DNA of 63,885 nucleotides, filler included, from Reclinomonas americana ATCC 50394 (GCA_048213135.1; 6 parts of 3 records of this genome joined end to end with filler, not necessarily neighbours in it), one strand, 5' to 3'; counted from the whole stretch's first letter, positions 2,056 to 54,760 are shown. Program-made: numbers and translations. Notes: generated from the letters alone by a model not told the origin.

Positions 2056-2884
2056 ATGACGACGAAGCTGTCGGGCTCGTCCGCTCGGTACAAGCTGCTG
2101 GTGCAGCTGCTCTCTGGTCACTCCAGGTGAAGAGGAAAAGGCAGAAGAAAGTGTGAGGGCTGTGATCGGCGTGGAGATGGCTCCTGTCTCCCCCGCCTCC
2201 CGTCTCTCACACACTCAGAGAGACACGCACTCTTTCTCTTGTAGTTGTTGCTGTTGTCTGTGTTGTTGTTGTCTGTGTTGACTGGGAAGAGGGGTGGGCG
2301 CGCGGAAAAAGGAGATGTCGCGCTTGTGTGGGTGTTGCCTCTCTCTCTCTCCACCACTCGTGCACGCAAACAGAGAGACAGAGAGATAAGAGTGTGAGAG
2401 AGAGAGAAAGAAAGAAAGAGAGATGTATCGCAATGTTATATCTGATTTGTGTCATTTTGGACGACGCTCTTCCTTCTCACTCTCTCTCTCTCTCTCTGTG
2501 TGTGCAGGTACGCCAAGGCGATTGCGGAGAGTTGCAAACCCAGTGAGCACGATGGACTTGCGCATGCACTGGTGGCAACCACATCGGGAGTCGGAGGCAC
2601 TTTGGCCATTATTCGCGACATTCTCGCACTCGAGTTTGAGAAGAAGGTGCATGCGCCGCACACCATCCTGCGAGTCAACTCTATTGCCTCAAAGATCCTT
2701 GGCTTGTACACTCGTTGCGTCTGTCTCTCCCACTCTTTCTCTCTATTGAGCATCCCTGTCATGACTCCTCACTCCTCCTCTGCAACAGGTAAGCTCGGCC
2801 TCGTCTACCTCAAGGACTGCATCGGTGCGCCGATTGTGGAGCTGTGTGAGCTCAAGGACTTTAGCATGGAAGTGGATCCCGAGT

Positions 2885-2923
<39 letters not shown>

Positions 2924-4137
2924 CCTCCTGCCTCCCTCTCTCGCCCTTGCTTGGCTCATGCGCGCGATCGTGCAGCAAACTCGGTGGCGACACGGAACTG
3001 GCCGCCCGCAACACGGAGGAGCTGACGCGCTGGTGCCAGCTGCTACTCGACGCCATTATCGATGAGACGAGGCGGAAGGAGATGCCGCGCGAGATTAGGG
3101 CGCTGGCGTTTTACATTCTCGACTTGGGCGAGAAGCACCGCTTGTCGGAGAAACCCGGCTGCTCGGTGGTGACGCTGATTGGTGGATTCATTATGCTGCG
3201 CTTCTTTTGCCCGGCCATCACGCTGCCGTCGTCGTATGGCATCCTGCCGGAGGACAAGTTGCCGACACCGGGTGTGCGACGCAATCTCACGCTGATCACC
3301 AAAGTGTTGCAGGTGTGTCTGTGTATGCTCATTGACTCGCCTCTCCTCTCTTCGGTGATTCACAACGATTGTGCCGCAGAAAATGTCCAACGGTGAGACG
3401 TTTGACGATGCGGAACCGTACCTCAAGCCCATGAACAAGTTCATCCGTCGCAATGCCATGCGGTTGAACAACTACCTCGTGAAGATCTGCGAAGATCCGC
3501 TCGGATCTGGTGAGTGACATCGTGCACATTCTCGCGTATTCCCACGCTCACTCACTCACTTCCTCCTCTTCCCTCTTCTTCTCTCCTCTGTCAGGCTTGG
3601 CGGAGCCATTTGCCGATGTCGACCCGCCCGTGTCGTTTGAGGTGTTGCATTTCAAGGAGTTCGACATGAAGGATCTCATCTTTATCCACCGCGTGCTCGA
3701 CCGGTGTGCAAAGGAAATCATTGTGCGTGTACAGTCGTATTCTCTAGAGGCCACTGGCGAAGGTGCGCTTTTGTGTGTTTTCTGCTTCTGCCCTCGGATG
3801 GTGTGTAATTAATTGGTGATGTTGGCTTGCAGCGGCGCGCGGGTTCTTGTCGTCGGATGCCGATTTTGTGAAGTTGATTGGCGACCTCGGCCCACCGCCA
3901 CCAACCAAGAGGCGCGGCACGACGGCGGGCGAAACAGAGGGTGGTGACGATGATGGTGCCGGTGGGAGTGGCGTGTCGGCGGAGGACCGCACACTCGACC
4001 TGGTGGACATTGGCTTGCGGAACCTGCTGGAGAACTCCGACAAGTTCGACACGTCGGTGCTGGAGGCTGCTCGCTTTTTCTATCGTCGCGGCGCCTCCAA
4101 GCTCGGTGTGCCGGTGTTCTACTTGATTATGCACAGG
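2056..4137 (+). CDS. Neurofibromin-like RasGAP (RasGAP domain then start of Sec14/CRAL-TRIO); multi-exon, 3' end in gap
   Basis: ILRVNSIASK (arginine finger), GGFIMLRFFCPAI (FLR motif), RRNLTLITKVLQ and EPYLKPMNKFI. FFYRRGASKLGVPVFYLI matches the NF1 Sec14 start. GT-AG introns restore the frame. Confidence 0.88.
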
Positions 4138-4529
4138 TGAGGCTACACTTCTTTGTTCTCCGCTCTCTCTCTCNNNNNNNNNNNNNNNNNNNNNNNNNNN
4201 NNNNNNNNNNNNNNNNNNNNNNNNNNNNNNNNNNNNNNNNNNNNNNNNNNNNNNNNNNNNNNNNNNNNNNNNNNNNNNNNNNNNNNNNNNNNNNNNNNNN
4301 NNNNNNNNNNNNNNNNNNNNNNNNNNNNNNNNNNNNNNNNNNNNNNNNNNNNNNNNNNNNNNNNNNNNNNNNNNNNNNNNNNNNNNNNNNNNNNNNNNNN
4401 NNNNNNNNNNNNNNNNNNNNNNNNNNNNNNNNNNNNNNNNNNNNNNNNNNNNNNNNNNNNNNNNNNNNNNNNNNNNNNNNNNNNNNNNNNNNNNNNNNNN
4501 NNNNNNNNNNNNNNNNNNNNNNNNNNNNG

Positions 4530-5130
4530 ACGACCTCGAACGCAATCGGGAAATTCAGCGTCTCCGACAAGACACACGCTTGGAACAACACGTCCAACAT
4601 GTCGTTCCGCTCCTGCTCCCCGTCCTATGTGAGCTACTCCACGCCAGAGGAGCCACAGTGTATCGCAAGAAACGCAACATCTTCCGAGTTCGGGGTCAGG
4701 AATATTGATTCCACCTGGGCCTCGGCACCACCCGCACTACTGCCGCCTGCCGCTTCGACGGCAAACAGATCTACGACCACGCAACACACACACACACACC
4801 AATCAGTCAGCACGCATCGGATGGGATTGTTGCTTCTCTGCTGCTACTCGTACCTTGTGGGGACTTGATGCGGAACTCAATATCCAGCTGCTCTGGGGTG
4901 TACAGAATTTGGTCGAGATCCGCAAACGCCACCTCCAGCTGCAGGTTCTTCTTCGTGTCAAAAATGCCCACACAGTTCGGCATCAGCTTGAGGAGCCGAT
5001 CGCGCTTCTTCGGGCTCTTGGTGTCCCACGTTTGCACTTGATACCACACGGGTCGCCACATACGCGACTGCATCGGCAGGAACAGCTGCGCACAACACAA
5101 GGCATAGGTCAGCAGCGGACAAACAACAGC
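4530..5130 (-). CDS. PH-like exons, probably the continuation of the NF1-like gene on an inverted contig
   Basis: QVQTWDTKSPKKRDRLLKLMPNCVGIFDTKKNLQLEVAFADLDQI...EQERNDMLDVLF has a PH-type strand/helix pattern. The segment is bounded by N gaps on both sides. Confidence 0.5.
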
Positions 5131-5483: not shown

Positions 5484-6295
5484 ACTGGCCGGCCCCGCGC
5501 TGGCCAAGGAGAAGGCCGTGGATGGTGTCGGATCGCGCTTGTCGTACGATTTCGGGCAGCGCATGACCGAGCTGCGCGAGGCGTTCTCACAGCTGGATGT
5601 GGACGACTCCGGTTCCGTGCCGGTGCAGGAGGTGGAGAACTCGATTCGCGCCCTCGGCCTCAACTTGTCGTTGCGTGCCTCCAGATTGCCGTCGCGAATG
5701 TTCTTAGCATGTATATACTCACGAGTGGGATTGTGGGTACAGACCACAAGAAATCGACGTGCTCCTCAGCCGCCTCGATCGCCACAAAACCGGCGTCGTG
5801 TCCTTTGACGAATTTTTGCAAAGCTGGCTAATGGCCACCGGTCGCATGTACGAAGATGCGACGCTGCCGCGACGCGCTCCTGCTGATTCTCCGGGCTCGC
5901 GATTGCCACCACGGCGGTTATCGCTGGCCACCGGTCGCTCCGACAGCTTCAGCAGCAGCGGTGCCGGCACACCGCCTGCCTTTGCACTACCGTCACCCAT
6001 GGCTGTCGGTGGCGGTGCATCATCACCGGTGGTCGCCGCCGGCGAGTCGCCATTTGCCGCAGATGGAAGTGCTGTGGCGTTGGCCCCCGCGTCCGCTGCT
6101 TCGGCGGCGGCAGCAGCAGCAGCAGCCGCTTCGCCGGCATCCAGCAATGGCAGTGGCAATGGCGGCGCAAGTCCGTCGCTGCTCGCACGGCGCGGCAGTC
6201 TCGGTCGCGCACCAGCCACACCTCCGCTAAACCCCCGTTTGTCGTTGGCGTACAACCAGCCGATCGTGGACCCGTCATTGGCGACGGGTGTTTGA
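5484..6295 (+). CDS. 3' fragment: EF-hand pair plus Ser/Ala/Pro-rich tail
   Basis: ELREAFSQLDVDDSGSVPVQEVENSIRALG and LDRHKTGVVSFDEFL. An intron begins at 5670; stop at 6293-6295. Confidence 0.8.
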
Positions 6296-11946: not shown

Positions 11947-11981
<35 letters not shown>

Positions 11982-12084
11982 NNNNNNNNNNNNNNNNNNN
12001 NNNNNNNNNNNNNNNNNNNNNNNNNTTAATTAATTAANNNNNNNNNNNNNNNNNNNNNNNNNNNNNNNNNNNNNNNNNNNNCTA

Positions 12085-12116
<32 letters not shown>

Positions 12117-13116
12117 AGTCTCTCTCTCTTTTTCCTCTCGTGTGCAGAAAAAGATCAAGGAGATGTTGCACGAGGTGGACTATGATCACGATGGGAAGGT
12201 CGGACTGCATGATGTTGCGTGGGGCGAGCTCCTCCTCGTGCGCCTCCTTTGCGTTCTTGGCCGCTTACTGTTTCTGTTGCGCTTTTTCTACGATAGTTTG
12301 TGATGATGCGGCAGAAGGGTGCGCCGGTCGAGCTCAACATCTTGGCCGAGTTCAAAAAGTACGACGTGTCGACACTGCATCGCGGTTTCATCACGCCCGA
12401 GTCGATCCAGCGAGCTGCGTATTGCTGGAACGCGCGTCCACCTCTGCCGTCTTCCGTCTTTTTTGTGTGTGCTTACGGAGCAGTGTGTGGGTCGCGCAGG
12501 TGTTGCGGAGTGAAGGCGTCGATGAGAGCATCCTCGAGGCGAAGATCGAGGAAATGATGAAATCGGTGCGCTCCCGCTGTGTACACACGTTGAGCGTTCT
12601 CATTGTGTACTCACGCACGCGTGTGTGTATTCGTAGGATTCCAATGCGGACGGAAAGGTGTCGTACCGTGACCTCTTTGAGTTTATGACGGAGCGTGTGC
12701 CCGACGAGTGGCTGGGGTGGATTGCGGAAAAGTTGAGCGACTGATTCGTTGTTTGGGGGTTCCTCGTTGCTCTCGTGGCTGACGATTTGTGCTTGTGCAG
12801 CGTGGACCGTGGTGTCGATGATGCGGTGCTGGTACACGTCATGGTAGAGAACGGATTCCAGGCAGAAGTCGCCCGCGAGCTCGTTGTGCGAACAAGACTG
12901 GAGGGTCGACTGGAGGCTGAGAGGTGCGTTGGCAGTGTGTGTACGCAGTGTGACGTCGAGAGACTCACCTCACTAAACTCAACGTGTAATTACGACTATG
13001 GCGCAGGTCGTACCCCGATTGGAGCAAAGCCTCGCTGTATGTACTCAAGGCGTGAGTCGTGTCAACCGCGTTCATTCACGCCAGCTCACATTAGTCATGT
13101 AAAGCGTGTCAATTGA
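11650..13116 (+). CDS. Calmodulin-like EF-hand protein with C-terminal helical domain; spans a contig linker; ends approximate
   Basis: EF loops LFNKLD, VDYDHDGKVGLHD, YDVSTLHRGFITPE and DSNADGKVSY, followed by DEWLGWIAEN|VDRGVDDAVLVHVMVENGF. Confidence 0.72.
12026..12037. other. Artificial contig linker TTAATTAATTAA (also 28476-28487, 36337-36348, 51056-51067, 55337-55348)
   Basis: An identical 12-mer with stops in all six frames, always embedded in N runs. Confidence 0.97.
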
Positions 13117-28431: not shown

Positions 28432-28531
28432 NNNNNNNNNNNNNNNNNNNNNNNNNNNNNNNNNNNNNNNNNNNNTTAATTAATTAANNNNNNNNNNNNN
28501 NNNNNNNNNNNNNNNNNNNNNNNNNNNNNNN

Positions 28532-30055: not shown

Positions 30056-32071
30056 TTACAGTCTATTAAAAAAGGTGGCGTGGAGTCAGACACCCGATAG
30101 CGGCGGACAGAGAGGGACTGACGACAACGACAACGCAACTTCTTCACAATCTGCACGACATCTTCGTCCTCCAGAATGTGATCGCGGCCGACCTTTTGCG
30201 GATTGTGCCGTGCTGACCGTCCCCATACCCATGCACTGCATGCATCGCACAGTGAGCAAGAAGACGGCAACATCAGCTGCTTCCGTAAAAAGCAACGCAA
30301 CTACTTGAAGTCCTTGAGAATGGCGCGATGGATCTTGTTGCAAAAGTGTTCCATCGAGCACATGTGGGACTTGAGAATGACGGGGGCCGAGTAGTCAGGG
30401 AACTGCCCTCTGGGCTTGGTGTAACTGCGGGCAGGGTGCGAGACAGTGAGCACGGCGCTCGAAATCTCAGAACACGTACGAACACCACAAACAACAAGAG
30501 CAATCTCGGAAGGTTGTATCGGGCGGAAAGACAGCAGACTGTCGCCAGTCACCCTTCTATCCTTCCTGGAAAGAACGGAAAAGAGAGAAAGACAAGAGAA
30601 GAGAATTGCCGAAATACTCACATGCGGACCAAGCTTAAGTACTCCCAGATGCGTTCCAGCAGCTCATCCAGATTCCAGCTGTGTTCGGCCGAGATCGGCA
30701 CCACGTGCGGCAGCTTGAACAGAATGTCGAGCTCCTCGATCGTGATTGCGTCGATCTTGTTCAACACATAGATGCACGGAATGTAGATGCTGTGTGTGTG
30801 TGTGCGTGGCGCTGCCGTGAGCGACCACCACGTAAGAATATAGACCACCCAAGGAAATAATCAACTCACCGGTTATTCTCCAGCACATCAATGAGATCGT
30901 CGGCGGTGGCATCGCATCGGAAGCACACGTCGGCATTCGGAATGCGATACTCGTTGAGGATGTTTGACACGGTCTCCTTGTCGAGGTACGACAGATTTGT
31001 CTACGCACCAATCTCATCAGCATAGGAGCAGGAGGTGGCGGCAGAGGCGAAGCATCCATCCACAGCGACTCACCGTCGACGTAATCATGTGTCCACCACG
31101 CTCCTTCTTGCGGAACTGAATGTCTGGCGGCCGCTTGTTGAGACGAATACCAAAGCCCTCGAGCTNNNNNNNNNNNNNNNNNNNNNNNNNNNNNNNNNNN
31201 NNNNNNNNNNNNNNNNNNNNNNNNNNNNNNNNNNNNNNNNNNNNNNNNNNNNNNNNNNNNNNNNNNNNNNNNNNNNNNNNNNNNNNNNNNNNNNNNNNNN
31301 NNNNNNNNNNNNNNNNNNNNNNNNNNNNNNNNNNNNNNNNNNNNNNNNNNNNNNNNNNNNNNNNNNNNNNNNNNNNNNNNNNNNNNNNNNNNNNNNNNNN
31401 NNNNNNNNNNNNNNNNNNNNNNNNNNNNNNNNNNNNNNNNNNNNNNNNNNNNNNNNNNNNNNNNNNNNNNNNNNNNNNNNNNNNNNNNNNNNNNNNNNNN
31501 NNNNNNNNNNNNNNNNNNNNNNNNNNNNNNNNNNNNNNNNNNNNNNNNNNNNNNNNNNNNNNNNNNNNNNNNNNNNNNNNNNNNNNNNNNNNNNNNNNNN
31601 NNNNNNNNNNNNNNNNNNNNNNNNNNNNNNNNNNNNNNNNNNNNNNNNNNNNNNNNNNNNNNNNNNNNNNNNNNNNNNNNNNNNNNNNNNNNNNNNNNNN
31701 NNNNNNNNNNNNNNNNNNNNNNNNNNNNNNNNNNNNNNNNNNNNNNNNNNNNNNNNNNNNNNNNNNNNNNNNNNNNNNNNNNNNNNNNNNNNNNNNNNNN
31801 NNNNNNNNNNNNNNNNNNNNNNNNNNNNNNNNNNNNNNNNNNNNNNNNNNNNNNNNNNNNNNNNNNNNNNNNNNNNNNNNNNNNNNNNNNNNNNNNNNNN
31901 NNNNNNNNNNNNNNNNNNNNNNNNNNNCAAAAGAGGGTGAGTTTGTGAGGGGCATGTCAATGACGCAACACTCTTTCTCGCTTTCACTTTCACTCTCTGT
32001 CTCTCTCGTCTCTCTCGCTCACACACGCTCACCTCGGCCTCAATGTCCTCGATTTGTTGCGCGACCGACAT
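30056..32071 (-). CDS. DRG1: Developmentally regulated GTP-binding protein 1; middle in gap
   Basis: [55 protein letters not shown] and [23 protein letters not shown]. Confidence 0.93.
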
Positions 32072-32150
32072 TCTCGCGTGACCACGCAATCACACCTCTT
32101 TGCAATCCACCGTTCACGCCAGTCGACCGAGCTGTGACGTTGCAATCGAG

Positions 32151-32705
32151 ATGGATCGTTGCGCGCTCTTTGTGTGCCTCTCTCTTTGTGCATGTCTCTC
32201 TCTCTTTGTGACTCATCCTTGTGTGAGCAGCTCGAGGACTAGACGCGCCGTCAGGCATTCCCGATGAGCTGTTGGACGTTGCGCGCGCTCTTTGTCTCTC
32301 TCTCTGTGACTCTCTCTCTGTCTCACACACATGCGCACACACAGGAGAAGGCAGCAGAGAAGGCCGCTGCTGCAGTGCAGAGCAAGATCAACTTGCAGGT
32401 ACAAGTGACTCGCACGCATGCATTGTGATCATCTCCTCTCACACACTCTTTTCTCTCTCTCTCCCTCTGTGTGCAGAGCCTGCCCATTCGTGCGTACCTC
32501 GACCAGACAGTGGTGCCTGTGCTCTTGCAAGGACTGGCGGCTGTGGTGCGCGATCGGTGAGCGTGTCTTGCCTTGTGTATGTGTCGTTTTTCCAAGTTGT
32601 TCAACTCCCCCTCCTTCCTCCTCTTCTTGCAGACCTGCCAAGCCCATTGAGTACTTGGCGGCGTACTTGCACAAGCGCAGCGAGTCGAATGTGGAGAAGG
32701 AATGA
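32151..32705 (+). CDS. DPY30: Dpy-30 family protein, 5 exons
   Basis: Spliced product ...[45 protein letters not shown]. Confidence 0.9.
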
Positions 32706-32958
32706 TGTGTTGCATGGTGGAAGCAAAAGGAAAACAACAACAATGCCACATGCTCTTGTGTGTTGTATAGGGAAGGGAAGGGCAGTGAATGCGCAAGAGT
32801 CTTGTTCTAACACCACGTTTCTTATCGATTGTTTACGTGTAAGACCCTCTTTTCTGTGGCTGGTACCCGTCGAAGAACAGGGCCACAGCAAGATGGGAAA
32901 GAGGAGAAGCATGGAAGAAGACAGAAAATCGAGAATGTGCGCGGAGCGCGCTGCAATC

Positions 32959-35164: not shown

Positions 35165-37755
35165 TTACGGGCTGAGGCGCAGTGGGGTGCGCGGGAACAT
35201 GGACGTCTTCTTCACGTTCATCACACCCACAATGAAGCCGGTCAGGCGCTCGAGTCCGAGGCCGAGACCAGCGTGCGGCCAGCCGCCTGCGGACAAGTGA
35301 TTAGTGACAAATGTGACAAGCAGATCGGTGGGCATCATATTGCGACACGCACCGTAGCGCGTTGAGTCAATGTACGCACGCAAGGGGTCCGGGTTCACGC
35401 CGCGAGCACGCAGCCGCTCAATGAGCAGCTCTGGCTCGTGGACGCGCTGTGCGCCAGAGGCGATCTCTTGGCCACGCAGCATGAAATCGTACGAGTTGGA
35501 GTAGTTCTGTGAAGCACGGGCCATTAGCATCTTCTTCTCCTTTTCCTCCTCCTCCGCAAGCAGTGGGGTGAACTCACCGGGTCCTCGGGGCACGGCATGG
35601 TGTAGAACGGACGTGCCGCGAGCGGATACTTATGCAGAATGTAAAAATCGGTGTCGTACTTTTCGCGCACCAACTCGCCCAGCTTCTTCTCCTGCGGCGT
35701 ACTGCACGCAAGAAAGAATTCAGCAATGAGCACTCACCACCAGCAACATCCACTTTCCAGTCAACATGCAAAATACGCAACGACAAATCGCCATTCGGGT
35801 CGGCATCGGCAACGCCGGCCTCCTGCAGCATGCGAATGCCCTCGCGGAAGTCCAGTCGCAGGTTCGGTCCGTCGCGGTTGTACTTCAGTGGCTCACCACC
35901 GTACTGCGCACGGATCGAGGCCAACTCTGCCGGGAAGCGCTCCTCCACCTACGCCCAACCAACAAATGTGGTGAGTGCAAGAGAGCGAGTGACACACAAA
36001 CACTGGTCCACAACAAAGTACCTTGTTGAAAATGTACACGAGGAGAGCGTCGAGCACGTCGAGTGCCTCAAAGTAGTGCTCGTGAATGGTCATTTCAACG
36101 TCGAGACCAATGAACTCGGTCAAGTGTCGTGGCGTGTTGCTGTTCTCGGCACGGAACACTGGCGCCACCTCGAACACACGCATCAAGTCACCCTCCACGG
36201 CCATTTCCTTGTACAGCTGCGGTGACTGTGCCAAGAATGCCTCGCCTGCACATCAACGCCACTGGCGTCAGATACGTCCATTATACATGCAGNNNNNNNN
36301 NNNNNNNNNNNNNNNNNNNNNNNNNNNNNNNNNNNNTTAATTAATTAANNNNNNNNNNNNNNNNNNNNNNNNNNNNNNNNNNNNNNNNNNNNCAGCACAC
36401 GCACCTTCAAAGTACTTGACGCGGAACACCTCAGCACCGCCCTCACTGGCACCGCCAATGATCTTCGGGGTGTGAATCTCCACAAAGTCCTGCGCACAAA
36501 GGAACTCGCGGAAAGCCTGGCCAACACCGCTCTGGATGCGGAACATGGCCACGTGTGCGGGCACACGGAGATCGAGCACACGCTGGTCGAGGCGTGTGTC
36601 CGGGTCCACACGGGGTGCATCCTGTTCCACCGGAAATGAGCGACAGTGTGTGCGCGCACACACACACACACACTCCGCAGCAAGTTAGGAGCGCACGAAC
36701 CGCAAGTGCAGCAGCACTGCCGGAACCAGAGCCATCCTCCGGCGCCTCCGGCCTTGAGGCATCCTCGATGCCGAGTGGCAGCACTGGCTCCGAGGCACTC
36801 ACCAAGTACAGATTCAACACCGCCAGCTCCACGTCGCCCTGCGTGGCCGACTCCACCTTGGCCTTGGCCAACACACCCACCACATCGACAATTGATTCGC
36901 GTGCGAGACTGCAAGCGAGCGCGGAGTGAGTCATCATCATGTCGCCACCACTCGAGGTGAATGTCGCACGAACCCAGCAGCAAACTTGATCATCTCCTTG
37001 GTCGTGTTGTTCTCACCGATAAACATGCACGCCTGCAACGAGTACATGCCGTGGCGGAGCACAAGGAAGCAGCCCTTGGCTGGTGGCAGACAATGGAGAG
37101 AGAGAGAGAATATTCCTCAAAAACCATGATCCACAATCATCGAGTGACACACGAGGCACGCGTACCTTGTGCACGCGAGTTGTGAATGCGAGCGCGCACC
37201 GTCACTTGCATGCCGGCCTTGTCGCCATTCAAATCCTTGATGGGAGTCCACACACGGTTTGTGCGTATCTGCGACTGCAGACGCGGATATATGCCGTACG
37301 GTGCCGAACCCGACACAATCTCGGCAAACTCGAGCACGCGACCCTGAAAGCGCCTGGATCAGTCAACCCATCGTCGTCACATGCACACATATCACTGCTT
37401 GTATACCTTGGTCGCTGCTGCTGCCGCAGCAGCAGCGGCATCAGCCTGACGCTTGCGCTCCTCCTTGCTCAGCTGTAATCATTATCGGAAAAAAAGTGTC
37501 GGTCATTGCACCTCCCACACCAGTCACACATCGCCACACCAGCATACCTTAGGAGCCTTCTCCTGACAATCGCACACACACACACACACGCACCAGTGAG
37601 CACCATCGCAAGAAGGGGAGCAGTCTCACATGACCACACACCTTGCCGCCCTTCTTGCCCTTGCCCTCACCACCCTCGCTCGATGCCGCCGCTCCTCCTG
37701 CAGCAGCAGCAGGGGCAGCCGGCGGTGCCTTGTTGCCCTTCTTGCCCTGGCCAGC
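35165..37755 (-). CDS. DARS: Cytosolic aspartyl-tRNA synthetase, continuous across the linker at 36337
   Basis: OB fold [121 protein letters not shown] and [12 protein letters not shown]. Confidence 0.96.
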
Positions 37756-37908: not shown

Positions 37909-38601
37909 CGAAGGCTGCTCGTCGTTGACCGACAAGTTTAGAGCCTCCACAGAAACACCGGCGAGTGCGAGCAAATCGGTGGCCTCACCACGCGAAACAA
38001 TCCTGTTCAGCGTTGAGTTATAATGGTTTTTCACGGCGTTTGCAGTGCGCCCGGGCAGAGCCTTCGCAATCCTGTACACAGTTACAAACAAAGAAGAATT
38101 GGGCAACAAGATTAGCATCGGAGACCTTGCGGTCGCCGACATCGCACGAAAGACGAAAACGCAACTCTGCCCAGCCACGTCCACTTGAGGCAACCATCTG
38201 CAAGATTTTCACGTTTTCCTCCGTCGACCACTCTTCGTGAGAAATGCTCGGATCCAATTGGTTGACATAGTGCTCTCGAACAGACTTGGCGGTGCGGTCC
38301 GGACCCATGCGGCTCGCAATGCCTTGTTCAACACATGCTACCATAAGCACAAGTTGCGGACAGCATGTGACACTCGGCAAGCCGTTCCTCACCTTTCCAA
38401 TCACGAGCACCATACTCGCTAACCAGCGATCGCAGCAACTCATTCTCTTCCTCCGTCCACTTCTTGTGCGCTGTGCAGGCGGTGAGCTCATCAGTCATTT
38501 CACTGTGCACTTAGGCCAAAAATACCTTGCCGTTCTCTTTTGATCTCCTGCGACGATGCAGCAGACGCACCCGAGTCACCCCCAATCAGACCACGCGGCA
38601 T
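37909..38601 (-). CDS. R2R3 Myb DNA-binding domain exons, apparently the N-terminus of the AspRS gene; may extend 5' of 38601
   Basis: KKWTEEENELLRSLVSEYGARDWK|GIASRMGPDRTAKSVREHYVNQLDPSISHEEWSTEENVKILQM...WAE|IAKALPGRTANAVKNHYNSTLNR. Confidence 0.92.
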
Positions 38602-39275: not shown

Positions 39276-42200
39276 ATGGACGAAGTGGTGTTGTTGGTGT
39301 ACGAGTACTTGTCTGCGCGACGATGTGTGGACGCGGCATCGGCGTTTCTGCGGGAGACTGGGCATGATCGACGCGCAGTGGAGACTGCGTTGCGAGAGAG
39401 ACGAGTTGCGTGCTTCTCTCCTCCTCCTCCACTCCTCCTCTGTGGCGGCGGTGGTGGTGGTGGTGGTGGTGGTGGTGAAGAGTTGCTCATCGCAGTTGTC
39501 TGTCATGTCAGAATCTGCGACCGCCGCTGGTGACGCTGGTGGCGCGCTTCTTTGAGATGCGGCGTGAGCGCTCAGAGGCTGATGCGTTTGCGGTGGCGCT
39601 GCATCGCTTGTGCCAACCGGCGTCGCAGTCGACGTCGTCCACTGCTGCTGCTGCTGCTGCGGCTACTGCGGCTGCGGAGAGTGCTGCCGCTCGCTCGGCC
39701 ACCGTGCAGACGGCTGCTGTGGAGGCGCTGACTCGCTTGTCGACGGTGGTGGACGAGTTCCAGGCGCTGCGCAAGCTGTTTGTGCAGCAGTCGGTGTTGC
39801 GTCTTGTCGTGGTTGTCATGTGGAAGAAGGAGAAGAGTTGGGCGACTCATGATGATGATGATGACAGTGGTGTTGCGTCTGATTCAAGTTCGACGGCATC
39901 CAGTACGCGGTGAGTTCGTGTGCAGCTTCAATGACACCGGCAGACAACTCACTTGCAGAATCCCTGTTTGTTAGTGGCAACTCTGGTGCATCGTCGCGCA
40001 GCGCGGCTCGGTGTGTGTCGTGCGATTGTCTCTTCGTGGACGCGTCTGCTGTCGCTCACTGAATGGGTGATTGTTGCGATGCAGCGGAAACAACACAGGT
40101 GGAACCACCGTCACCATACAGACGTCGGGATCATCATCGTTGCGCTCTTGTCGACTGATTTTCGACCAGTGCGTCGCAACAGTTGCTCATCTCCATATCC
40201 CTTGTGTTTGTTTAACCAGTGCACCGTCTAGCGTGCGGCATACGCAGTTGCGCAACAGTACGAGTGTCTACTGCTGCACGCTTTTGTGATTCTCACGTGA
40301 TGTTGTGCAGATTGTTGCCACGAACGCCGTCCACTCCATCGTCGCTGTTGCGTTTTTCCCAGTCTCCCCTTACACAAGCCAATTTATGTATCTCTGCTGA
40401 CGTGACTCTTTGCTTGTGCGACGCAGAATCAACGATGGATACGCAACAACGTGCGTCTTGTCGATTCCCAGCTCGATTTTCACCGAATGCTGTACTCAAA
40501 TCGTTGCGCAGTCCGCTGAGTGCCACCCCATCGGGATCAGCTCGATCCTTCCCGCCTCCACCACCGCCGCCACCACCGCCGCCACCACCGCCACCATTCA
40601 TGTTCGGTAATGATCCGCTGGTGACGCTGCCATTGCCAGATCACATGTGCGTCGACGAGGTCGTCTCATGTCGCCCGTGCGGTCCGCTCACTCGCGACTG
40701 TAATTGTGTGCAGTCGCTCGATCGCCAACATGCAACAAAACAGTGTCTCAATGAGGTTTTGCACGCTTGCCCACCGTGTCTGTCACCAACTCATCCGCTC
40801 TGCTGACCTCTCACCGCTCACAGTTTTTCAAGCACACCGCTTCCACCACCCCCACCACTGCCCATGTCATTGTCGCAAACGTACGCTTGTTTCGACCGCG
40901 TCGAGTCTTGCGTGGACATTGTTGTGTGGCTCACTGGTCTGTTCGTTATTAGGTCATCACCGGCTCTTCGAAACACACCACTTTCGTTGCGTCTCATCAC
41001 GTTCATGTTGTACGCGCGTCTCTGTCTTCTCACTTCTTCTTGTGATTTGTCGCGCAGAACACCCCCACCAAGCTCAATGCCCGTGGTGTACACACCACTG
41101 CCGTCACCACACGCGAGGTGTGTGAAGTGCCATGCTTGCTGTTATTCACCCTCGTCACTCAATTGCGCTGTTGTCTGAGTGCAGTCAGTTTGGTCCGGGT
41201 ACCAGTGACACGCCGACCTCGCGGTCAGTGCCTGCGACTCCTCCTGCTGGGTGCGTCGTGTGCAACGTGCGCGTGATGTCATACCTCGGTGATGTTATTA
41301 ACACACTGGTGGCATCGCAGTCTCCCATTGCCACCACCACTCCCACCACCACCGTCAACCATGTGTTCGTTGCCACTGCCGCCACCACTGCTTCCGCCAC
41401 CGCCACCGCCGCCGCCCTCGTCGTTTTCCCCACCAGCGGTCACCTTGTTTCGTACCTTCCACCCCCCTGGCACACTTTCATTCTTTCATCTTGCTCACCT
41501 ATCCACACTCGCAGTACGGCGGAGATGCCGGCATCGACTACCACATTGGTGACGACCTCATCGACGACCATCGATGGCTCCATTTTGATTCGCGAGAGCA
41601 GGTGCGTGCGCCCTCCTGTTGTTGTTGCCGTCCCCTTTCTGACATTCGCACGTTTCCCCTCCAGTTCGATCACTGTGACCAACGAGACTCCAAGGTACAG
41701 CCAGCTGCTCAACATGCATCGTGACTCACAAGAATCACTCACCTTCTCGTTGCAGGGAGACGGAAGAGAGCAGTCGTGCAGCCGCGCAGGCGGAAGCAGA
41801 TCGGTTTGTGTTGTCTCGGGAGCTCGTTGAGAGGGGATCAGTCTCCTTGCTCACGTGTTCTGTCGCAGATTGTTGCAGCAGCGGCGGCAAGCAGCGGCTC
41901 CCGTTCGACCAATGGTGGGACGCACAGCGAGGTGTGTGTTGCCGTGTCGCCCCCCGTCATTGCACTGTGCACGGAGGCTAATACATGTCTGCAGCCGACC
42001 TCTGTCAGCCACAGCAGGATCAACGACAACTACAACGACAACTGTTACCCAGCCGAGGTAATTCGCTCTTCACCAGTGTTCGACTGCTGCGGCCCGTCAC
42101 TCACTTGCACACGAACTAGCGGCGAGGCACATCTATCTTCCCAACACGAGTCGCCGCCACCACCACCACCATCGCAGCAGCGACACCCCACGCCGTTTGA

Positions 42201-44434: not shown

Positions 44435-46168
44435 TCAATAAACAGTGCGCTGACCGACAATCCACTTGACGGCGGCCGACATGCGCTCCGCTGCGGCTCG
44501 CATCTCCACGTGAGTCAGCGGGTGGTGCGTCACCACTCGGAATGCTCTGGTGCTGCCGCCGAGCGGGCTGATCAGAACTCCAACTGCAGCCGAGGCCCGT
44601 GCCAGTTCGTCGACCGAGAACGGTGCCTGGGGAGGGAGGGAGGGAGGGAGAGAGGACAGAAGCTGCTTCAGCTCATGCACACAAACTGTGCACTGCAACT
44701 GTGCATTGCTGTTAAAACGCAACAGCATCTGCCACTCGGAAAAACACAATGTTGGTGGGTACACCACCGGCTGTTGGCAGCAATGCATCGTGAGTTGCAT
44801 GTGAGCTCACCAGAGAGAGAGAGAGACGTGCATGGACAACTCACGTGGAATGTGCTCCAGGAAGGGAATCATGGTCAGTAGCTTGGTCAACAGACGAGCA
44901 TTCTCGTGATCCTCCTCCAGCCTCCACGTCTGCGAGAGCACATGCACTGGTTGAGAAGGCACGGTCACAGATAGCCACGACGCCGCAGTGGATCCAAACC
45001 ATTTGTCGCAAAGCCAGCAAACCGGCAGCAGCCAGGATGCCGGCCTGTCGCATGCCACCACCGAGCGACTTGCGCACACGCCGCGCCTCGTAGATGAAGT
45101 CACGCGAGCCGACCACCACAGATCCCACAGGCGCACAGAGGCCTTTGGAGAGACACAAAGACACCGAGTCGGCACCGGCGGCCACCACATGCACCGGCAG
45201 ACCTGCAAAAAAACACGATGAATCAATAAAGTGTTGCAACAGTCCTCCTGCGCCCAGCGACCACGCACGAAGTGCGACAGCTGCGTTGAAGATGCGAGCG
45301 CCATCAATGTGGAACTTGAGTTGGTACTTTCGACACAGCTTCGCCACCTCCGCCGTGTACTCCACCGGCACCGCGACGCCACCGACGCCGGCCTGCAGAA
45401 TCGAGTCCGTGAGCCCATCATTCCGCTCCCCATTTCCCCCCGTGCGCCCGACGCAACATGCGTGGTCTCGACTGTCACCAACGACGTGCGTGGACAGTGC
45501 GGATCGTCGTCACGGATCGCTTCGACAATGTCGGGCAGTGGCATCGTTCCGTCACGTCGCACGTCAATCGGCCACGGATGCACACTGTGCGCCACCAGTC
45601 ACCTACACAGCGAGAAACACACTGCAGCATTCCATGGCACCGAAGAAACGCACCCGCCAAAGGCCGCAGCACTGCCGCCTTCCCATCGATAGATGTGCGA
45701 CTGCCGACCGACAATCATCTCATCGCCACGTCGACAGTGCGCCAGCACAGAACACACGTTTCCCATGGTCCCCGAGGGCACAAACAGACCAGCCTCCTTT
45801 CCCAGCATCTCCGCCGCTGCAATTGCACGCGTCAGCGACGCACGCAGACGGCGATCGGAATGCAGAATTTACCGAGAGCCTCCAACTCATTCACCGTGGG
45901 ATCCTCGCCGTACACATCATCGCCTGACACACACACACACACACACACACACACTGAGAGTCTGACTCACTGTGCTCACTCACTCGCACAAGCAGCGCGC
46001 ACCCACAGCTGCTGCGGCCATTGCACGTCGCATCTCCACCGTCGGCACAGTCACCGTGTCACTGCGCAAGTCAATGATACTATTGGCAACACTGCTGCTG
46101 CTGCCACCTGCCGCAGTGGCAGCTGTGTACTGCCACCGGCGACCACACACTCTCCACAGAGACAACAT
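44435..46168 (-). CDS. GLY1: Low-specificity L-threonine aldolase with presequence-like N-terminus
   Basis: [55 protein letters not shown] (PLP Lys) and GGGMRQAG. Confidence 0.93.
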
Positions 46169-46217
46169 CGCAGTCACTGTGTCCTGCGCGTGCGTGTGTG
46201 TCAGTGAGTGAGTGGCA

Positions 46218-49200
46218 ATGAGCGCAAGTGAAGCCGGTCCCTCTGTGCTGCCAGTGGAGCAGCACATGGACGAGGTGTTGGCCTCGGTGCGTGCGCGACG
46301 AGTGACGTGCATTCGAGGCGAGACTGGTTGCGGCAAGTCGTCGGTGGTGCCGCGACTCTTGTTGCAAGACTGGGATGCTGGTGTGCGCGCGCTTGCGAGT
46401 CTCCACTGTGGTGCCAGTAGAATGACATTGTGTGGAACAGGTGGCAATCGTCGTCGTGCCAACATCATCGTGACACAGCCGCGACGCATGGCTGCGGTGT
46501 CGTTGGCGCGACGAGTGGCTTCGCAGCTGGGCGAGGAGATTGGAGAGCGAGTTGCGCGTTGTGCGAATTGAGGGAAGGAAGGGAGTTGTCTCCTCTCTGA
46601 GCGTTTTCTCGGCAGGTTGGCTATTGCATCTCGCGCGAACGCGAGGTGGGCGAGCGCACGCAGCTTACGTTTGCCACTGTGGGCTGGTTCCTCCAGTTCC
46701 TCAGCCACCAGCCGCGCAATGTCGACAACTATACGCATGTGGTGTTGGACGAGGTCCACGAACGCGACTGCGATGCCGATCTGCTCAGTATGTTGTTGAA
46801 GGTCCGTCGGTGTTTTGCGTGTGTGTCTGTGTGATGGTGGCGCCGACTGACTGCATTGTGATGCGTGCCAGGTGTTGTTGCAGGAGCACAAGAAGGTCAA
46901 GCTGATCATCATGTCGGCCACGCTGCAGGGCGACCTGTTTTCGCAGTACTTTGCCGAGCTAAATGCGGACGGTGAGAGCGAAAGAGTTGAAGGGAAGCGA
47001 TGCGCGGTGTGCATTGTCTGTGCTGACAGCTGGGCACACCACACGCACATGCACACAGGGAAACCATCGCCGGCAGTGTTTGTCGGCGTGCAGCGGTACC
47101 CGGTGCAGGAGTTGTTTGTGGAGGATTTGGCGGGTGTGATCCCGCGCTTTGGTGGTCAGGGTCGTCGACTCGCACAGAATGTAGGCGACATGTTTAGTGG
47201 AGGCCGGGCACCCGCAGGCGCCGAAACCGCAGTCTCTGCTGCTGCTGCTGCTTCTGCCGCCGGCTCATCATCCCGAGTGGTCTGTGCAGTGCTTGCTGAG
47301 TGATTCGTTGCACTCAGCCTCCACCTTCTCATCATTTGGCGCAGCGAGCCGACATTTTCCCTGCCACGTACCAGTTGGCGGTGCACACGATTGCGTGCGT
47401 GTCGCAGTCACAGACCAGCATTTTGGTGTTTCTTCCCGGTTCCGCAGAGATCCTGCAGCTGCAGACGGCACTAGAGGACTCGTTTGTGGGACTCTATGTG
47501 TCGGAGACGGGCGTGCAGTTGGAGGTGATTGCGACTCGCAGTGTGGAGTGCACACTGTGCAATAACTAAACTCGTGTTTCGCAGCTGCTGGTGCTACATT
47601 CGATGGTCTCCCGCGAGGACCAGGATCGTGCATTCGAGGAGGTTCCTGCCGGCTGCTGCAAAGTCATCCTGGCCACCAACATTGCCGAGAGCAGCATCAC
47701 CCTTCCCGACGTCAGCTACGTTCTTGATTTTGGCTTGCATCGACACGTCGTGGTGAGTGTGTGGACAGTCGGCGCCCTCAGCTCTCACCAGGCTCGTGAG
47801 CTCACGCTCCACTCCACAGGTGGATCGCGAGAGGAAACACATGGCATGCTTGGTGAGCCGGCTTCCTTTCGCACATCATTTGTCACCCGTAGTCGCTCAC
47901 TTAGTAGTGGTGCAGATCAAAACCTGGTGCAGTCGCGCATCCATGACGCAACGCAAGGGTCGTACTGGTCGACTGGCACCCGGTTCCTGTGTGCGCTTCA
48001 TGACGCGGCAGTTTTTCGAGGAGTGCCTCACAGATTTTGACACGTTGTGTATTTCGCGCACCGCGCTGCCCATCGCGCCATCCACCGTGCATCTCACAGT
48101 TGGCCACGCAGTGCGGAGATGATTCGAGTGCCACTGCAGCAGATTGTGCTGCGCGTGATGCTGCTGTTCCGAGCATTCGGCTCGCTCAAGTCGCTGCTTG
48201 CGCAAACGGTGGAGAGCCCACTGCCAGAGGATGTCGATTTTGCGCTGCGCGAGTTGTACCACGAGGGGGCCATCACGTCGGCCACCGAGGAGGCGCGAGT
48301 GACGTTGCGTATTATGCCGCATGCTCGCAGTCACTTTCTCTCTCTCTCTTTCTCACTGGTGGTGCAGTGTGTTGGGCGAACTGGCGGCGCGCTTGCCAGT
48401 GGATTTGCAATTGTCGAAACTCGTTCTGCTTGGTCTCGCCATGGGCTGCGAGTGCGATGCGGTGCGTTTTCACTGGCTGGCGCGCACGTCTGAATCCACC
48501 ACTGGATACTCACTCGTGTGCTTGTGCGTAGCTGTGCATGGCCGCCGCACTGGCGTCGCAGGATTTGTTTCTGCAGCCATCGGCCCATTTCCTGGACCCG
48601 TACTCGCTGGCGCGGGAGATGGAGGCCAATCTGAAGAGTCGGATGCGATTCGACGGAGGCGTGTACAGCGAGGTGCAGTGCTCGTTGTAATGTGTTGGCC
48701 ACGCATGTTGATACGACCCTCTATAACTTGGAGGCCTCGCAGCCCATCATGTACCGCAACTTGTTGCGTTCATGGCTCGCCTCACCACGCAGTCGTGCTT
48801 GGGCTCGCGACCGTTCCGTGTCGTTTGAGCGCATCAGCAACTGTCACTCTCTGGTGGCCGACATGGCCAACACACTCCTCACGTTCCTTCGAGAGCAACT
48901 ACGGTCGGCGTCCGCCAGTGCCGCGTCTGCATCCTTCGAGATGTTGGAAGTGCTGTCCAAGCCGCCTCGTCGCAGCGGCGGCGGCGGTGGTGGCGGTGGT
49001 GGTGGCGGTGGAGGCGACAGTGACAGGCCGGCCACAAAGTTGACCTTCCAGAACAATCCGATGGTGTTGCAGTTGCTGCTGGCCAGTGCCTTTTCGCCGT
49101 TTTTCGTGCACGGCAGAGTGCGCCGAGATGCAAAACTGGAGCGACTGGTGCGCGCGCGCGTGTGTGTGTGTGCCCCTCTCGCGTCGCCCTTTGATGAATT

Positions 49201-49755: not shown

Positions 49756-49869
49756 NNNNNNNNNNNNNNNNNNNNNNNNNNNNNNNNNNNNNNNNNNNNN
49801 NNNNNNNNNNNNACAACACGTGATGTGGACGTGAGGGACCGTAATCAACCAAAAAAAGACGCCCGCCAC

Positions 49870-51000: not shown

Positions 51001-51111
51001 TGCATGCGTGCNNNNNNNNNNNNNNNNNNNNNNNNNNNNNNNNNNNNNNNNNNNNTTAATTAATTAANNNNNNNNNNNNNNNNNNNNNNNNNNNNNNNNN
51101 NNNNNNNNNNN

Positions 51112-51312: not shown

Positions 51313-51419
51313 CTCTCCACCACGCTGCTGTCGCCCCCCAAGGGAATATAGTACGCCAGCTGGCGACCTTGAAATTTGAGCTTTGTTTCTTGTTTCTCCG
51401 ATTCATTGTCGCGCGAGAT

Positions 51420-52765
51420 ATGCTCCGTGGTGGAGGCGGCAGTGTGCAGGAACGCACACCGGTGAGCCTCTCTCTCTCTCTCTCTCTGTGCTCCCATCTC
51501 GCTCTTCTCACGTGATCACACAGCTGCTGTCCCCGGCCCTCATTCGCGATCGTGGCGGCCTGTGCTCGGATGTATGCACAGTCGTTTTGTGGATCTGCAG
51601 CCTGCTGTCGCTGCTGTGCATGTGGCCGTGTCAGGTGAGTGTGTCATGCATGTGCGGAGGCACCGCAGCAGTGCAGTGACCACACAGAATGCACAGATCC
51701 GCATGGTCCGCGAGTACGAGCGTGCTGTCTTGTTCCGCCTCGGCCGACTTGTGGGGTCTGTCTCTGGGGGAAACAGGATGTGCCTCTGCTTACTCCTCAA
51801 TCTCCTCTCACTGGGAGCTCGCAGTGCCAAAGGGCCCGGACTGATCCTCGTGATGCCGTGCCTTGACAAGTGTCGTGCGTTGTCTCGTTTGTCCCTCCCT
51901 CTCCTCCCCTCCTCCCGTGGCACTCACTCATGCACACACACGCAGTGATTGTGGATCTGCGTCTGGTGCGTGCGTAGATCAAGTGTGCGCTGTGCAGGAA
52001 CGCCACTCTCACTCGCGTCCACGACAGGTGAGTCTCACCATTGCGCACCAAGAGGGCATCACCAAGGACAACGTGTCGGTGCGAGTGGACGCGGTGGTGA
52101 TGCACTACGTGGCCAACCCCATCAAGTCCGTCATGGCGGTCGAGAATGCCTCGGTGGCCACCGATCTGCTGGCGCAGACCACGCTGCGCAGCGTCGTCGG
52201 CCAGTCGGAGCTCGACGAGATTCTCGCTCATCGCGACGCCATCAACGCGCAGGTGAGGGGCCAAGGATCGGGGCACGCCCATGTTCATGTGGTTGACGTG
52301 CTCTTGCATGTAGCTGCAAAGAATACTGGACGAGGAGAGCGAGCCGTGGGGCGTGCGGGTGACTGCAGTGGAGATCCGAGATCTGCAGGTCCCTCAAAAC
52401 ATGGTGCGTTCACTGGCCTCGCAGGCCGAGGCGGAACGTCATCGGCGAGCGCGAATCATCAGCGCCGACGCCGAGTTGCAGGTGAGAGGGAGCGTTGATC
52501 ACTCCTGAGGCGCACGCTCGATTACTGAGCGTTGTGTGTGTGGCAGGCGGCACCGAGGCTTCGCGAAGCTGCCGACATTCTCGCCATGACACCTGGCGCC
52601 ACGGATCTCCGCCTCCTGCAGACCTTGGCGCAAGTGGGCGAGGAGCGCAGCAGAGTCAACGTGATTCCACTGGTAGGCCAGAGTTCGTTGTGCTCTCTCT
52701 TCAAATGCTCACTTGTGCGTTGCACGCAGCCACTGGAATTCGCAACCATGCTTGCCGCAAGTTAA
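51420..52765 (+). CDS. Stomatin (SPFH/band 7) paralogue A
   Basis: REYERAVLFRLGR, KGPGL, ITKDNVSVRVDAVV, LAQTTLRSVVG, PWGVRVTAVEIRD, QAEAERHRRARII and LRLLQTL. Confidence 0.93.
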
Positions 52766-52892
52766 TGAACGCCGACTCTAAACGAGGGGAGAAAACAAGC
52801 ACACAAGGCGCCGACTGTATCATTCACTCAACACCACAGCCATTGCCACTCAAACACAAAGAAGATGAAGAACAAGAAGAAGAACAAGACAA

Positions 52893-54760
52893 TCACAAAT
52901 TAACTTGACGAGGACCGTGCATCATCGCACCAGCCGCCGCACTGTGTCCGTGCCCACCGGCCGTGGCACCGCCACTCAGCATCGGCGTGCCGCCAGGAAT
53001 CAACGCCGAGAGCTGCACCGGAAGCGGGAACCAAATGGTGCTGGGGCCTGCGTATGTGGATGCAAAGTGAGCGAATCAGCTCGCGCAGCCTCTTGTGCGC
53101 TCTCTTCTCTCTCGAGTCTCGATGTGTTCTCTCGTTCTCTGTCTCCCAGGCAAGTGTGCACATTACTCTTCTCTTTGTTGCACACCCTCACATACACTCT
53201 CCCACTGCTTTGTTGCACATGTTATTCACAGACTGTGCACCTCGCAATCTGCTCTCCTCTCTCTTCTCACGAGCGCCTCGTGCGCACAACACCGGTTAAT
53301 CTCTCTCTCTCTCTGTATGACTCCGCAGTCGCACTTCCCACTCCCCTCTCCCCTTCTCTCTTCAAAACAACACACGCACCATCAGTGGCAATCTCCGACA
53401 CCGTCTGCATGTAGCGCAGCTGCATTGCCGCTGGATTTCCGCTCATCACCTCAGCCGCCTCGCGAACTGTTTTTTTTCACAGGTATCAGCATTAGCCTTC
53501 TCTCTCTCTCAAGCATCACCAACGAGGCAACGCAACTGCGTGTGGCCGCCTGATACTCGCCGTCGGCATTGACGACCTTGGCACGGCGATCACGCTCGGC
53601 CTCGGCCTGGCTGGCCATGGCACGCTGCAAGCTTTGCGGCAATACCACATCCTTCACCTCCACGCCCGTGATGCGCACACCCCAGTCGGCCGAGTCCTTG
53701 TCGAGAATGTCGCGAATCTTGGTGTTGATCACGTCGCGCTGCGACAGCAGCACGTCGAGCTCCACCTGGCCAATGACCGAACGCAGGGTGGTCTGTGCGA
53801 TCAGCTGCGTGGCGCGATCGTAGCCGTTGACGTTGCAGATCTGCGAGGGGCGCAAGGGTGGGTGATGGGACGGAGGAGGGAGAGTGGGGAAGGGGAAGGG
53901 GGAAGGGGGAAGGGAGAAGAGAAAAGGTTCTTCAGCAGCAAGAGAGGCAAAGAGAAGGGGAACAAAGTCGCCGAGATTCGAGATCTTGCAAACGATGAGA
54001 GTGAATCAAGAAGAGAGCGAAACAAAGAAATGGGAATGAGAGCACACAAAGCCGCTCTGATTCGAGCATTCGCACACCAGCGATGAGTGTGAACAGAAGA
54101 TGAGGAAAACCAAAGAAACAAAACAGATTTCCTTAAGTTCTCCTGCTCGAAGAAAGCAAAAAAACATACGAATAGAATGAGAGCACACGAGGCCGCTTTG
54201 TATCGAGTTCTTGTGCAGCAGCGATCAGTGTGAACAAAGAAAAAGTGGTGCGGGAAATGGAGAGGAACAAGAAGCAATTCGGTCTTCAGAAGAGGATAGA
54301 AAAGGCTTTGAGAACGGAAAAGGAACGTGTTACGAGTGGTGAAGGGAAAGAGTGCACTTCTCCGCCAGTTCAACGCACCGCCTGCTCCGGGTTGACGACC
54401 TTGTAGAAGACGACAGCATCGACCTGCACCAGCACACTATCGCGGGTCATGGACTCCTGGTTCGGCACACGGAACGAGCGCGTGCGCAGGTCCACCACAA
54501 CTACACAACGCGGAGGTGAGCAGGCTTCATGGCGTCGACCGCGGCACAGAGACAGAAGCGCAACTCATGGAATCAATGCACGGCAGCAGCACAAACAGTC
54601 CGGGTCCCTTGCAGCCGAGGAAGCGTCCAAAGCGGAAAATCACACCGCGCTCGTACTCGGATACGACGCGGATGAAGCACGGCCACAGGCACAGGAACCA
54701 CATGAAGCTCATCATGTACAGGCAGCACGTGCAGAAAGCAGTGCAGCAGCCGGCGGGCTG
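52893..54760 (-). CDS. Stomatin (SPFH/band 7) paralogue B; first exon(s) beyond the gap
   Basis: EYERGVIFRFGR, KGPGLF, MTRDSVLVQVDAVVFYKV, IAQTTLRSVIG, LQRAMASQAEAERDRRAKVV, AMQLRYMQT and STIWFPLP. Confidence 0.93.

Follow-up and report, generated by a model that had tools for sequence, protein, structure and literature searches.

In the 63,885-base stretch of Reclinomonas americana ATCC 50394 DNA analysed here (GCA_048213135.1; hereafter the window), the motif GTTGCG(T) is, judging from protein homology, a genuine and abundant 5' splice-site (donor) class of ordinary GT-AG (U2-type) introns. Donors of the form GTTG[C/T]G open 9 of the 33 introns that were placed with homologues (27%; 95% interval 13-46%), which agrees with a preliminary description of the window in which GTTGCG was suggested as a major class and not a rarity. 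None of these nine donors has G at the last exon position (-1), compared with 21 of the 24 other donors (Fisher's exact p=5.7e-6), and the rule is best put as follows: an exon-final G is needed by the ordinary donors and is not needed by the GTTGCGT donors. Here it is proposed, with confidence about evenly balanced between acceptance and rejection, that GTTGCGT is read on the organism's U1 RNA in a register shifted by one base (+1). The footing of these claims is homology and statistics in one window, with 33 introns from five genes.

Placement, frequency and context of the GTTGCG donors

The junctions were placed by a protein-to-genome dynamic programme, which allows introns of the GT..AG or GC..AG kind (GC at an additional penalty) in any of the three phases and is blind to other donor motifs. 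Homologues were collected through three word-index searches, one exhaustive search and one scan of genome contigs. These comprised 8 of 120 listed matches for each of developmentally regulated GTPase (DRG), aspartyl-tRNA synthetase (AspRS) and stomatin, 6 of 150 for a DEAH-type helicase, picked by tblastn and trimmed to the helicase core, and 8 of 80 bacterial loci for threonine aldolase. A junction was kept if it was chosen by at least 60% of the homologues, had a GT donor and was flanked on both sides by positively aligning sequence. Left out of the resulting 33 were an AspRS junction near 36745-36622, for which 5 of 8 homologues took a GC donor over an insert of low complexity and the sequence has G/GTTCGTGCG at 36700, the helicase junction or junctions at 47161-47344, a poorly conserved stretch with no candidate at 60%, the DRG candidates upstream of an N gap, and all minority alternatives. 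The GT and AG termini are partly guaranteed by the design of the aligner, but collinearity with the homologues is not, and removal of the introns restored a collinear frame in all 33 cases (nine GTTG and 24 others). An ab initio gene finder based on codon usage and GT/AG only was also tried and rejected, its coding signal being too weak and its false introns many; it served only as a side check at position 36700.

With the exon-intron boundary written as a slash, the DRG gene has an intron of 66 nucleotides (nt) in phase 2 at 30236..30301 on the minus strand, which begins A/GTTGCGTTG and was chosen by 8 of 8 homologues. The AspRS intron at 35702..35781 (minus strand, 80 nt, C/GTTGCGTAT) was also chosen by 8 of 8, although its donor is the weakest GTTG case, as T/GTCGTT 3 nt upstream scores only 4-7 points worse. 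Two introns were found in threonine aldolase, both on the minus strand: one of 97 nt at 44627..44723 (T/GTTGCGTTT; 5 of 8 bacterial homologues) and one of 65 nt at 45393..45457 (T/GTTGCGTCG; 8 of 8). The helicase has three on the plus strand, at 46551..46615 (65 nt, A/GTTGCGCGT; 6 of 6 homologues), 48044..48111 (68 nt, C/GTTGTGTAT; 5 of 6) and 48304..48367 (64 nt, C/GTTGCGTAT; 4 of 6, the other two taking a GC donor 9 nt upstream). All verified GTTG donors have C at +5 except the one at 48044, which is GTTGTG. Finally, the stomatin/slipin gene has two on the minus strand, of 70 nt at 53467..53536 (A/GTTGCGTTG) and of 64 nt at 54501..54564 (A/GTTGCGCTT), each chosen by 8 of 8 homologues. Six of the nine donors (30301, 45457, 46551, 48304, 53536 and 54564) had been put forward in the preliminary description and were borne out by spliced alignment, and the remaining three, at 35781 (-), 44723 (-) and 48044 (+), are new.

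The last exon base before these nine donors is A in four, C in three and T in two, and A makes up 9 of 18 once the sites placed by frame only, described below, join the verified ones. The ordinary donors are degenerate (GTGAGT, GTGCGT, GTACGC, GTACTT, GTCCGT, GTGATT, GTAAAT and others), with GTG at +1 to +3 in 18 of 24, and they stand far above background in their -1 base, G being present in 21 of 24 compared with 26% for all GTG. Exons ending in G had been described as using mostly GTGCG, GTGAG or GTA, which is the case in 15 of 21. Only three ordinary donors follow another base, and all of them have the full GTG[A/C]GT: T/GTGAGT at 30621 (intron 30425..30621, minus strand, T/GTGAGTAT; 8 of 8 homologues), and C/GTGAGT at 44844 and C/GTGCGT at 45268, both from the threonine aldolase homologue alignment. 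At exon ends without G there are, in this way, nine GTTG donors and three GTG[A/C]GT donors. GTT donors after an exon-final G also exist, none of them GTTGCG. These include G/GTTCGTGCG of the AspRS intron 36909..36973 (minus strand; 8 of 8 homologues), the same nine bases, G/GTTCGTGCG, at AspRS 36700 (minus strand), read from the sequence and also picked by the ab initio pass, and G/GTTTGG at 44999. The classical optimal donor, GTAAGT, is scarce in the window (4 observed, 7.7 expected).

Apart from the donor, the two classes of intron look the same. Median length is 66 nt in the GTTG class and 70 nt in the others, base composition is alike, and the classes share CTCAC/CTRAY motifs as well as G/ACAG ends; by inspection, the CTCAC/CTRAY motif lies 10-35 nt before the YAG in either class. 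The commonest branch-like element across the window is also CTCAC-like. Since lengths, composition and 3' ends are equal, the GTTG introns are to be regarded as ordinary GT-AG introns that vary on the donor side. An intron type of its own, served by separate machinery similar to the minor spliceosome, or recent mobile introns ("introners") carrying their own donor, would also account for a near-invariant 5' motif without an exon-side requirement, as in U12-type introns. U12-type introns have the 5' motif RTATCCTT and the branch motif TCCTTAAC close to the 3' end. The GTTG motif differs from RTATCCTT, neither that motif nor TCCTTAAC was seen by inspection in any of the nine GTTG introns, and these introns match the ordinary ones in branch-like motifs, in the distance from these to the 3' end, in length and in composition. 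Likewise, 34 introns, made up of the two RasGAP introns at 2714 and 2883 and the 32 verified ones free of N, were compared by all-against-all blastn, which found no shared intron element, only microsatellites and the first 10 nt in two pairs. A separate or mobile intron type is accordingly rated as scarcely credible.

The same donors emerge from motif counts made without annotation, in which the window was compared with 200 dinucleotide-preserving shuffles. GTTGCGT was observed 40 times with 15.5 expected (z 6.2), GGTGAGT 32 times with 10.5 expected (z 7.5) and GGTGCGT 35 times with 15.3 expected (z 4.9); no enrichment was found for [ACT]GTGAGT (46 vs 40.9 expected) or [ACT]GTGCGT (74 vs 60.2). 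The hexamer GTTGCG has 90 copies on both strands compared with 61.6 +/- 8.1 expected, a count that none of 100 dinucleotide shuffles reached, and its expectation in a separate 200 shuffles was 63.2 +/- 7.6. A crude rule for the 3' signal, requiring CT[CGA]A[CT] 10-35 nt before a CAG or TAG that itself lies 50-130 nt downstream, flags 20 of the 33 verified introns and 21% of all GT. Under this rule, GTTGCGT is flagged in 23 of 40 copies, GGTGAGT in 18 of 32 and GGTGCGT in 16 of 35, and the reverse complement CGCAAC in 15 of 90. Among the flagged copies, G is at -1 in 1 of 38 for GTTGCG, compared with 34 of 62 for GTGAGT plus GTGCGT.

These results also bear on the simplest objection, namely that the sites are not GT donors at all, being either GC-AG donors three bases further on (GTT/GCG) or an artefact of gene models or of CGC-AAC codons on the opposite strand. 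When GTTG donors were forbidden, the usual fallback of the aligner was indeed GTT/GC, 3 nt downstream and in frame. Furthermore, CGCAAC consists of two preferred codons, and part of the raw GTTGCG excess may be opposite-strand coding. However, with GTTG donors forbidden the alignment lost between 4 and 47 points in each of 10 runs, and the GC reading places an in-frame TAG in the DRG exon at 30301. The nine donors occur in all three phases (3, 2 and 4 introns), which means that no single codon could account for a conserved exonic GTT. The 3' signal is strand-specific (23/40 for GTTGCGT vs 15/90 for CGCAAC), and in the sense strand of the five genes 8 of 10 GTTGCG copies are donors, next to 5 of 10 GTGAGT and 6 of 13 GTGCGT, with only 2 antisense GTTGCG copies in the same genes. 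A GC donor or an artefact is consequently very improbable, and homology and counting in the sequence establish, as far as they can, where the junctions lie, how often they occur, that they depend on the -1 base and that the 3' halves of the introns are alike.

Reading of GTTGCGT by U1

As had been pointed out in the preliminary description, GTTGCGT resembles a slid G/GTGCGT: moved by one base, it equals GGTGCGT in all but the second letter. The preferences of the two classes also match after a slide of one base, with G at +6 in 9 of 9 GTTG donors and at +5 in 20 of 24 others, and T at +7 in 7 of 9 and at +6 in 17 of 24. Pairing with U1 was counted on the canonical 5' end AUACUUACCUG, also written ACUUACCU or ACUUACCUG, as it is given in PMC9311317 and PMC4856993; it may not be the organism's own. 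With this U1, the nine GTTG donors form a mean of 6.1 pairs in the +1-shifted register vs 3.8 in the normal one, eight of the nine pairing better when shifted and one being tied. The 24 other donors are the mirror image, with a mean of 6.7 pairs in the normal register vs 3.8 in the shifted one. In the shifted register, the A at -1 of GTTG donors would face U10. A search of the window with Rfam models gave no family at gathering thresholds, small nuclear RNAs included, and at E<=1 only weak miRNA-like matches and two chance matches.

From these observations we infer a shift in register, with U1 as the reader. Ordinary donors, similar to G/GTG[A/C]GT, nearly always require an exon-final G; in GTTGCGT, the role of that G would pass to the first G of the intron itself. 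The footprint G-[G/T]-T-G-C-G-T would be bound by the U1 5' end, for GTTGCGT one base deeper in the intron, and the cut would fall 5' of whichever GU is present, that is, after the first G in GGUGCGU and before the first G in GUUGCGU.

Several observations weigh against this reading in its plain form. The predicted duplexes of the GTTG donors with canonical U1 are weak, with a mean of -1.2 kcal/mol vs -6.7 for the others (ViennaRNA, a calculation without pseudouridines, cap or U1-C), and the shifted duplex consists of three 2-bp blocks with two mismatches between them; despite this, GTTGCGT is preferred 3:1 over GTG[A/C]GT at exon ends without G. Position +5 is C in 8 of 9 donors, T once and never A, compared with A at +4 in 9 of 18 donors of the GTG class (p=0.012), although A at +5 would pair with psi5. 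In agreement with this avoidance of A, GTTGAGT is not enriched (7 observed vs 10.7 expected in the 200 shuffles) and GTTGAG has no 3' signal (4 of 33 flagged). The heptamer is also insufficient by itself, given that a sense copy, T/GTTGCGTTC, 21 nt into the helicase exon at 48763 (+), is unused according to 6 of 6 homologues. Lastly, GGTTG is scarce across the window: G precedes 7 of 90 GTTGCG and 81 of 656 GTTG vs 21% of all GT, and the 0 of 9 seen before GTTG donors is within this background (P=0.44). Because GGTTG is rare everywhere, 0/9 alone does not demonstrate selection against G. The claim of the preliminary description that GTTGCG goes with exons not ending in G thus stands as a contrast between the classes (0/9 vs 21/24), but the absence of G before GTTGCG is not beyond background (7/90). 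Similarly, its suggestion of a shifted register gains from the pair counts with canonical U1 (6.1 vs 3.8) and from the abundance of the class, and loses from the weak duplex and from a +5 that is C and never A.

Because the duplexes are weak and A does not occur at +5, where C prevails, a U1 that is non-canonical, or a second one, stays a live rival. Under this explanation, the U1 5' end would differ from the canonical one, in the sole U1 or in a second variant, and would pair almost perfectly with GTTGCGT instead of forming a weak shifted duplex, either with nucleotides 5-6 pairing with C at +4 and G at +3 or as the full complement of GUUGCGU. The GTTG class is nearly invariant over seven bases and the ordinary class is degenerate, a contrast typical of two readers, and this near-invariance beside a degenerate class suggests that the reader has a better fit to GUUGCGU than canonical U1. 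C and never A at +5, together with a GTTGAGT that is not enriched, is as expected from a G opposite +5. The weak binding predicted for canonical U1 and the rarity of its optimum GTAAGT (4 vs 7.7 expected) point the same way, and a precedent exists in a diplonemid with a second U1 whose 5' end is changed, according to PMC12621601. On the other hand, GGTGAGT is enriched like GGTGCGT, which is unexpected for a U1 preferring C at +4, and pairing in the normal register alone leaves unexplained why only the ordinary class needs G at -1. Conservation counts against an altered U1 as well, few known RNA sequences being as strongly conserved as the 5' end of U1. Taken together, an altered U1 is a possible explanation, although a doubtful one. 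It overlaps with the shifted-register reading in the case of a sole U1 with G/C at nucleotides 5/6.

A wider form of the same idea would be a two-track recognition of 5' splice sites within the major spliceosome, in which a degenerate track depending on -1 G is accompanied by a near-invariant GUUGCGU track with a dedicated or altered U1 5' end, serving about a quarter to a third of introns. This is put forward tentatively and is considered rather unlikely; if true, it would break with the ACUUACCU reader, which is almost universal.

The remaining explanation keeps U1, and later U6, in the normal register with one U at +2/+3 bulged out, GUUGCGU being read as GUGCGU. Dropping one U yields the organism's own consensus GTGCGT, pairing of U6 with G and U at +6/+7 would be regained, and human registers with a bulge at +3 (or +2) have been described (PMC4856993). 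However, the -1 base would still lie opposite C9 and G would be favoured there, which is at variance with the observed 0/9 vs 21/24 and, among flagged copies, 1/38 vs 34/62. GTTGAGT should then also be common, and it is neither enriched nor, as GTTGAG, followed by a 3' signal. A bulge is for these reasons judged improbable.

Other candidate donors and genes of the window

All 18 GTTGCG sites of the preliminary description (11 on the plus and 7 on the minus strand), as well as a GTTGAG at 12732, are present in the window, with A, C or T at -1. Besides the six in the five genes above, two in the RasGAP gene agree with an alignment to SynGAP (3bxj_A). The intron at 2714..2788 (+, 75 nt, C/GTTGCGTCT) gives gapless collinearity with SynGAP after splicing, and the unspliced frame-0 open reading frame shows a 24-residue insertion precisely at the proposed intron. 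For the intron at 2883..2975 (+, 93 nt, A/GTTGCGCTC), the donor is the sole frame-compatible GT, and the alignment with the PDB entry is consistent, with a 2-residue loop difference.

Seven further sites, at 5670, 7246, 12214, 17627, 32278, 38165 and 39405, have frame continuity or motifs in their favour and no placement by homologues. These include candidate introns at 5670..5742 (+, C/GTTGCGTGC) in an EF-hand gene, with continuity of frame and of the EF-hand motif, at 32278..32476 (+, C/GTTGCGCGC) in a putative DPY30-like gene, with frame continuity, at 39405..39511 (+, A/GTTGCGTGC), with frame continuity and coding score, and at 38062..38165 (-, A/GTTGCGTTT) in a Myb gene, with frame continuity and Pfam Myb matches flanking both sides. 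The gene with sites 32158 and 32278 is a small one at 32000-32900 (+), with several short exons, the last of which would carry a Dpy-30-like motif. For 32158 and 33070 there was neither a homologue nor a conserved motif to go by, and at 30139 the DRG homologues end. Two sites of the preliminary description found no support as donors. At 12732, the read-through stops after 4 codons, and GTTGAG as a hexamer shows no enrichment; the supposed exception with an exon-final G at 34335 is on the minus strand (ttg/GTTGCGTGT), in sequence of non-coding appearance downstream of the AspRS stop. Other copies of GTTGCGT stand at the ends of long open frames, at 60733 (+), where the motif closes a frame of 907 codons, 25811 (-), 49478 (+), 49672 (+) and 40986 (+), and these are likely further donors of the class in genes without usable homologues.

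The window has a G+C content of 58% among called bases and 4,759 N spread over 23 runs, and it is gene-dense, intron-rich eukaryotic sequence with short introns. Genes were mapped with Pfam on the 300 longest of 620 stop-to-stop open reading frames, which gave a thiolase, RasGAP, a Kelch protein, an EGF protein, the DRG GTPase, AspRS, a Myb protein, DUF1152, threonine aldolase, the DEAH-type helicase and stomatin. Five gaps (11982-12081, 28432-28531, 36293-36392, 51012-51111 and 55293-55392) have the structure N44-TTAATTAATTAA-N44, in which TTAATTAATTAA is a six-frame stop linker of the type used for joining contigs, and the one at 36293-36392 sits within the AspRS intron 36246-36404. Residues 1 to about 160 of DRG have no counterpart in the called sequence, and the 762-base N run 31166-31927 seems to hold the gene's 5' half. 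A (GA)n/(CT)n palindrome at 2365-2506 gave sub-threshold matches to plant miRNA families (E 0.4-0.9), most likely by chance on a simple repeat.

Among 120 listed matches, the best for DRG was from the jakobid Seculamonas, with 83% identity on one exon; for an AspRS exon the nearest, also among 120, were a mix of discobids, glaucophytes and unnamed transcripts. Two other intron-containing genes have bacterial nearest matches. These are bacterial slipins of Verrucomicrobiota for stomatin (53381-54721, minus strand; 68-70% identity on one exon), and Chloroflexota for threonine aldolase (44522-46222, minus strand; at most 88% on one exon and 60% overall). Going by these matches, the two genes may stem from an old gene transfer followed by intron gain, or may merely be strongly conserved. 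No close relative for checking the conservation of donors was found when the DRG exon was compared with metagenome contigs (best match 76% identity). Andalucia godoyi is intron-poor, as stated in PMC7050145.

Comparison with known systems

A literature search for GTTGCG or GUUGCG as a splice signal found no printed report, with supplements and subscription journals outside the search; the text matches listed were primers, telomerase template variants or otherwise not to the point. A search of the literature on jakobid and Reclinomonas introns found nothing on splice sites.

The nearest system is human. Roca and Krainer are said to have found, in 2009, atypical human 5' splice sites that U1 reads in a +1-shifted register. 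In such sites, as in the GTTGCGT donors, the initial GU precedes a U at +3, the consensus-like part lies one base off, U1 forms more pairs once shifted, and the cut is made at the GU and not at the position set by the U1 register. They differ in the displaced stretch, which is here GCGU and never GAGU, and in the clean split by the -1 base seen here. They also differ in frequency, as all validated non-canonical registers amount to 1.5% of 201,541 human sites in PMC4856993, and here 9 of 33 introns are concerned. The registers with a bulge at +2/+3 (Roca et al. 2012; Tan et al. 2016, PMC4856993) are similar in the GUU start and in the restoration of a local consensus when one U is removed; these retain a preference for G at -1, in contrast to the 0 of 9 observed here. 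U12-type introns have in common a tightly constrained 5' motif without a requirement on the last exon base, but the GTTG introns have another motif, an ordinary branch region and the 3' halves of the remaining introns.

Compensation between the exon side (-1 G) and the intron side (+4 to +6) of 5' splice sites is known from comparative studies of donor dependencies. The ordinary donors of the window behave in this way, given that those at 30621, 44844 and 45268, which follow a base other than G, have the full GTG[A/C]GT, and degeneracy is allowed after G. Unlike in that scheme, where -1 G is missing the window most often has a distinct heptamer (nine donors) and less often a stronger ordinary donor (three). 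A possible protist route to reading a second kind of donor is the second U1 of the diplonemid S. specki, although the diplonemid donors are (G)/GTATG-like and not GTTGCG (PMC12621601).

What is new here, as the comparison suggests, is that a donor of a presumably non-canonical register has been raised to a major class under a strict rule. In practice, gene finders with a single donor matrix would put about a quarter of the organism's introns in the wrong place or overlook them, and one donor logo would mask both classes. If the shifted-register reading is right, the organism would offer a natural system for the fixing of the cut site independently of the U1 register, for the weight of the G opposite C9 of U1 and for the evolvability of the U1 5' end. 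Non-canonical U1 registers are a minority in humans, whereas in this organism one of the main classes would consist of such donors, exons ending in G using GTG-type donors and the others GTTGCGT.

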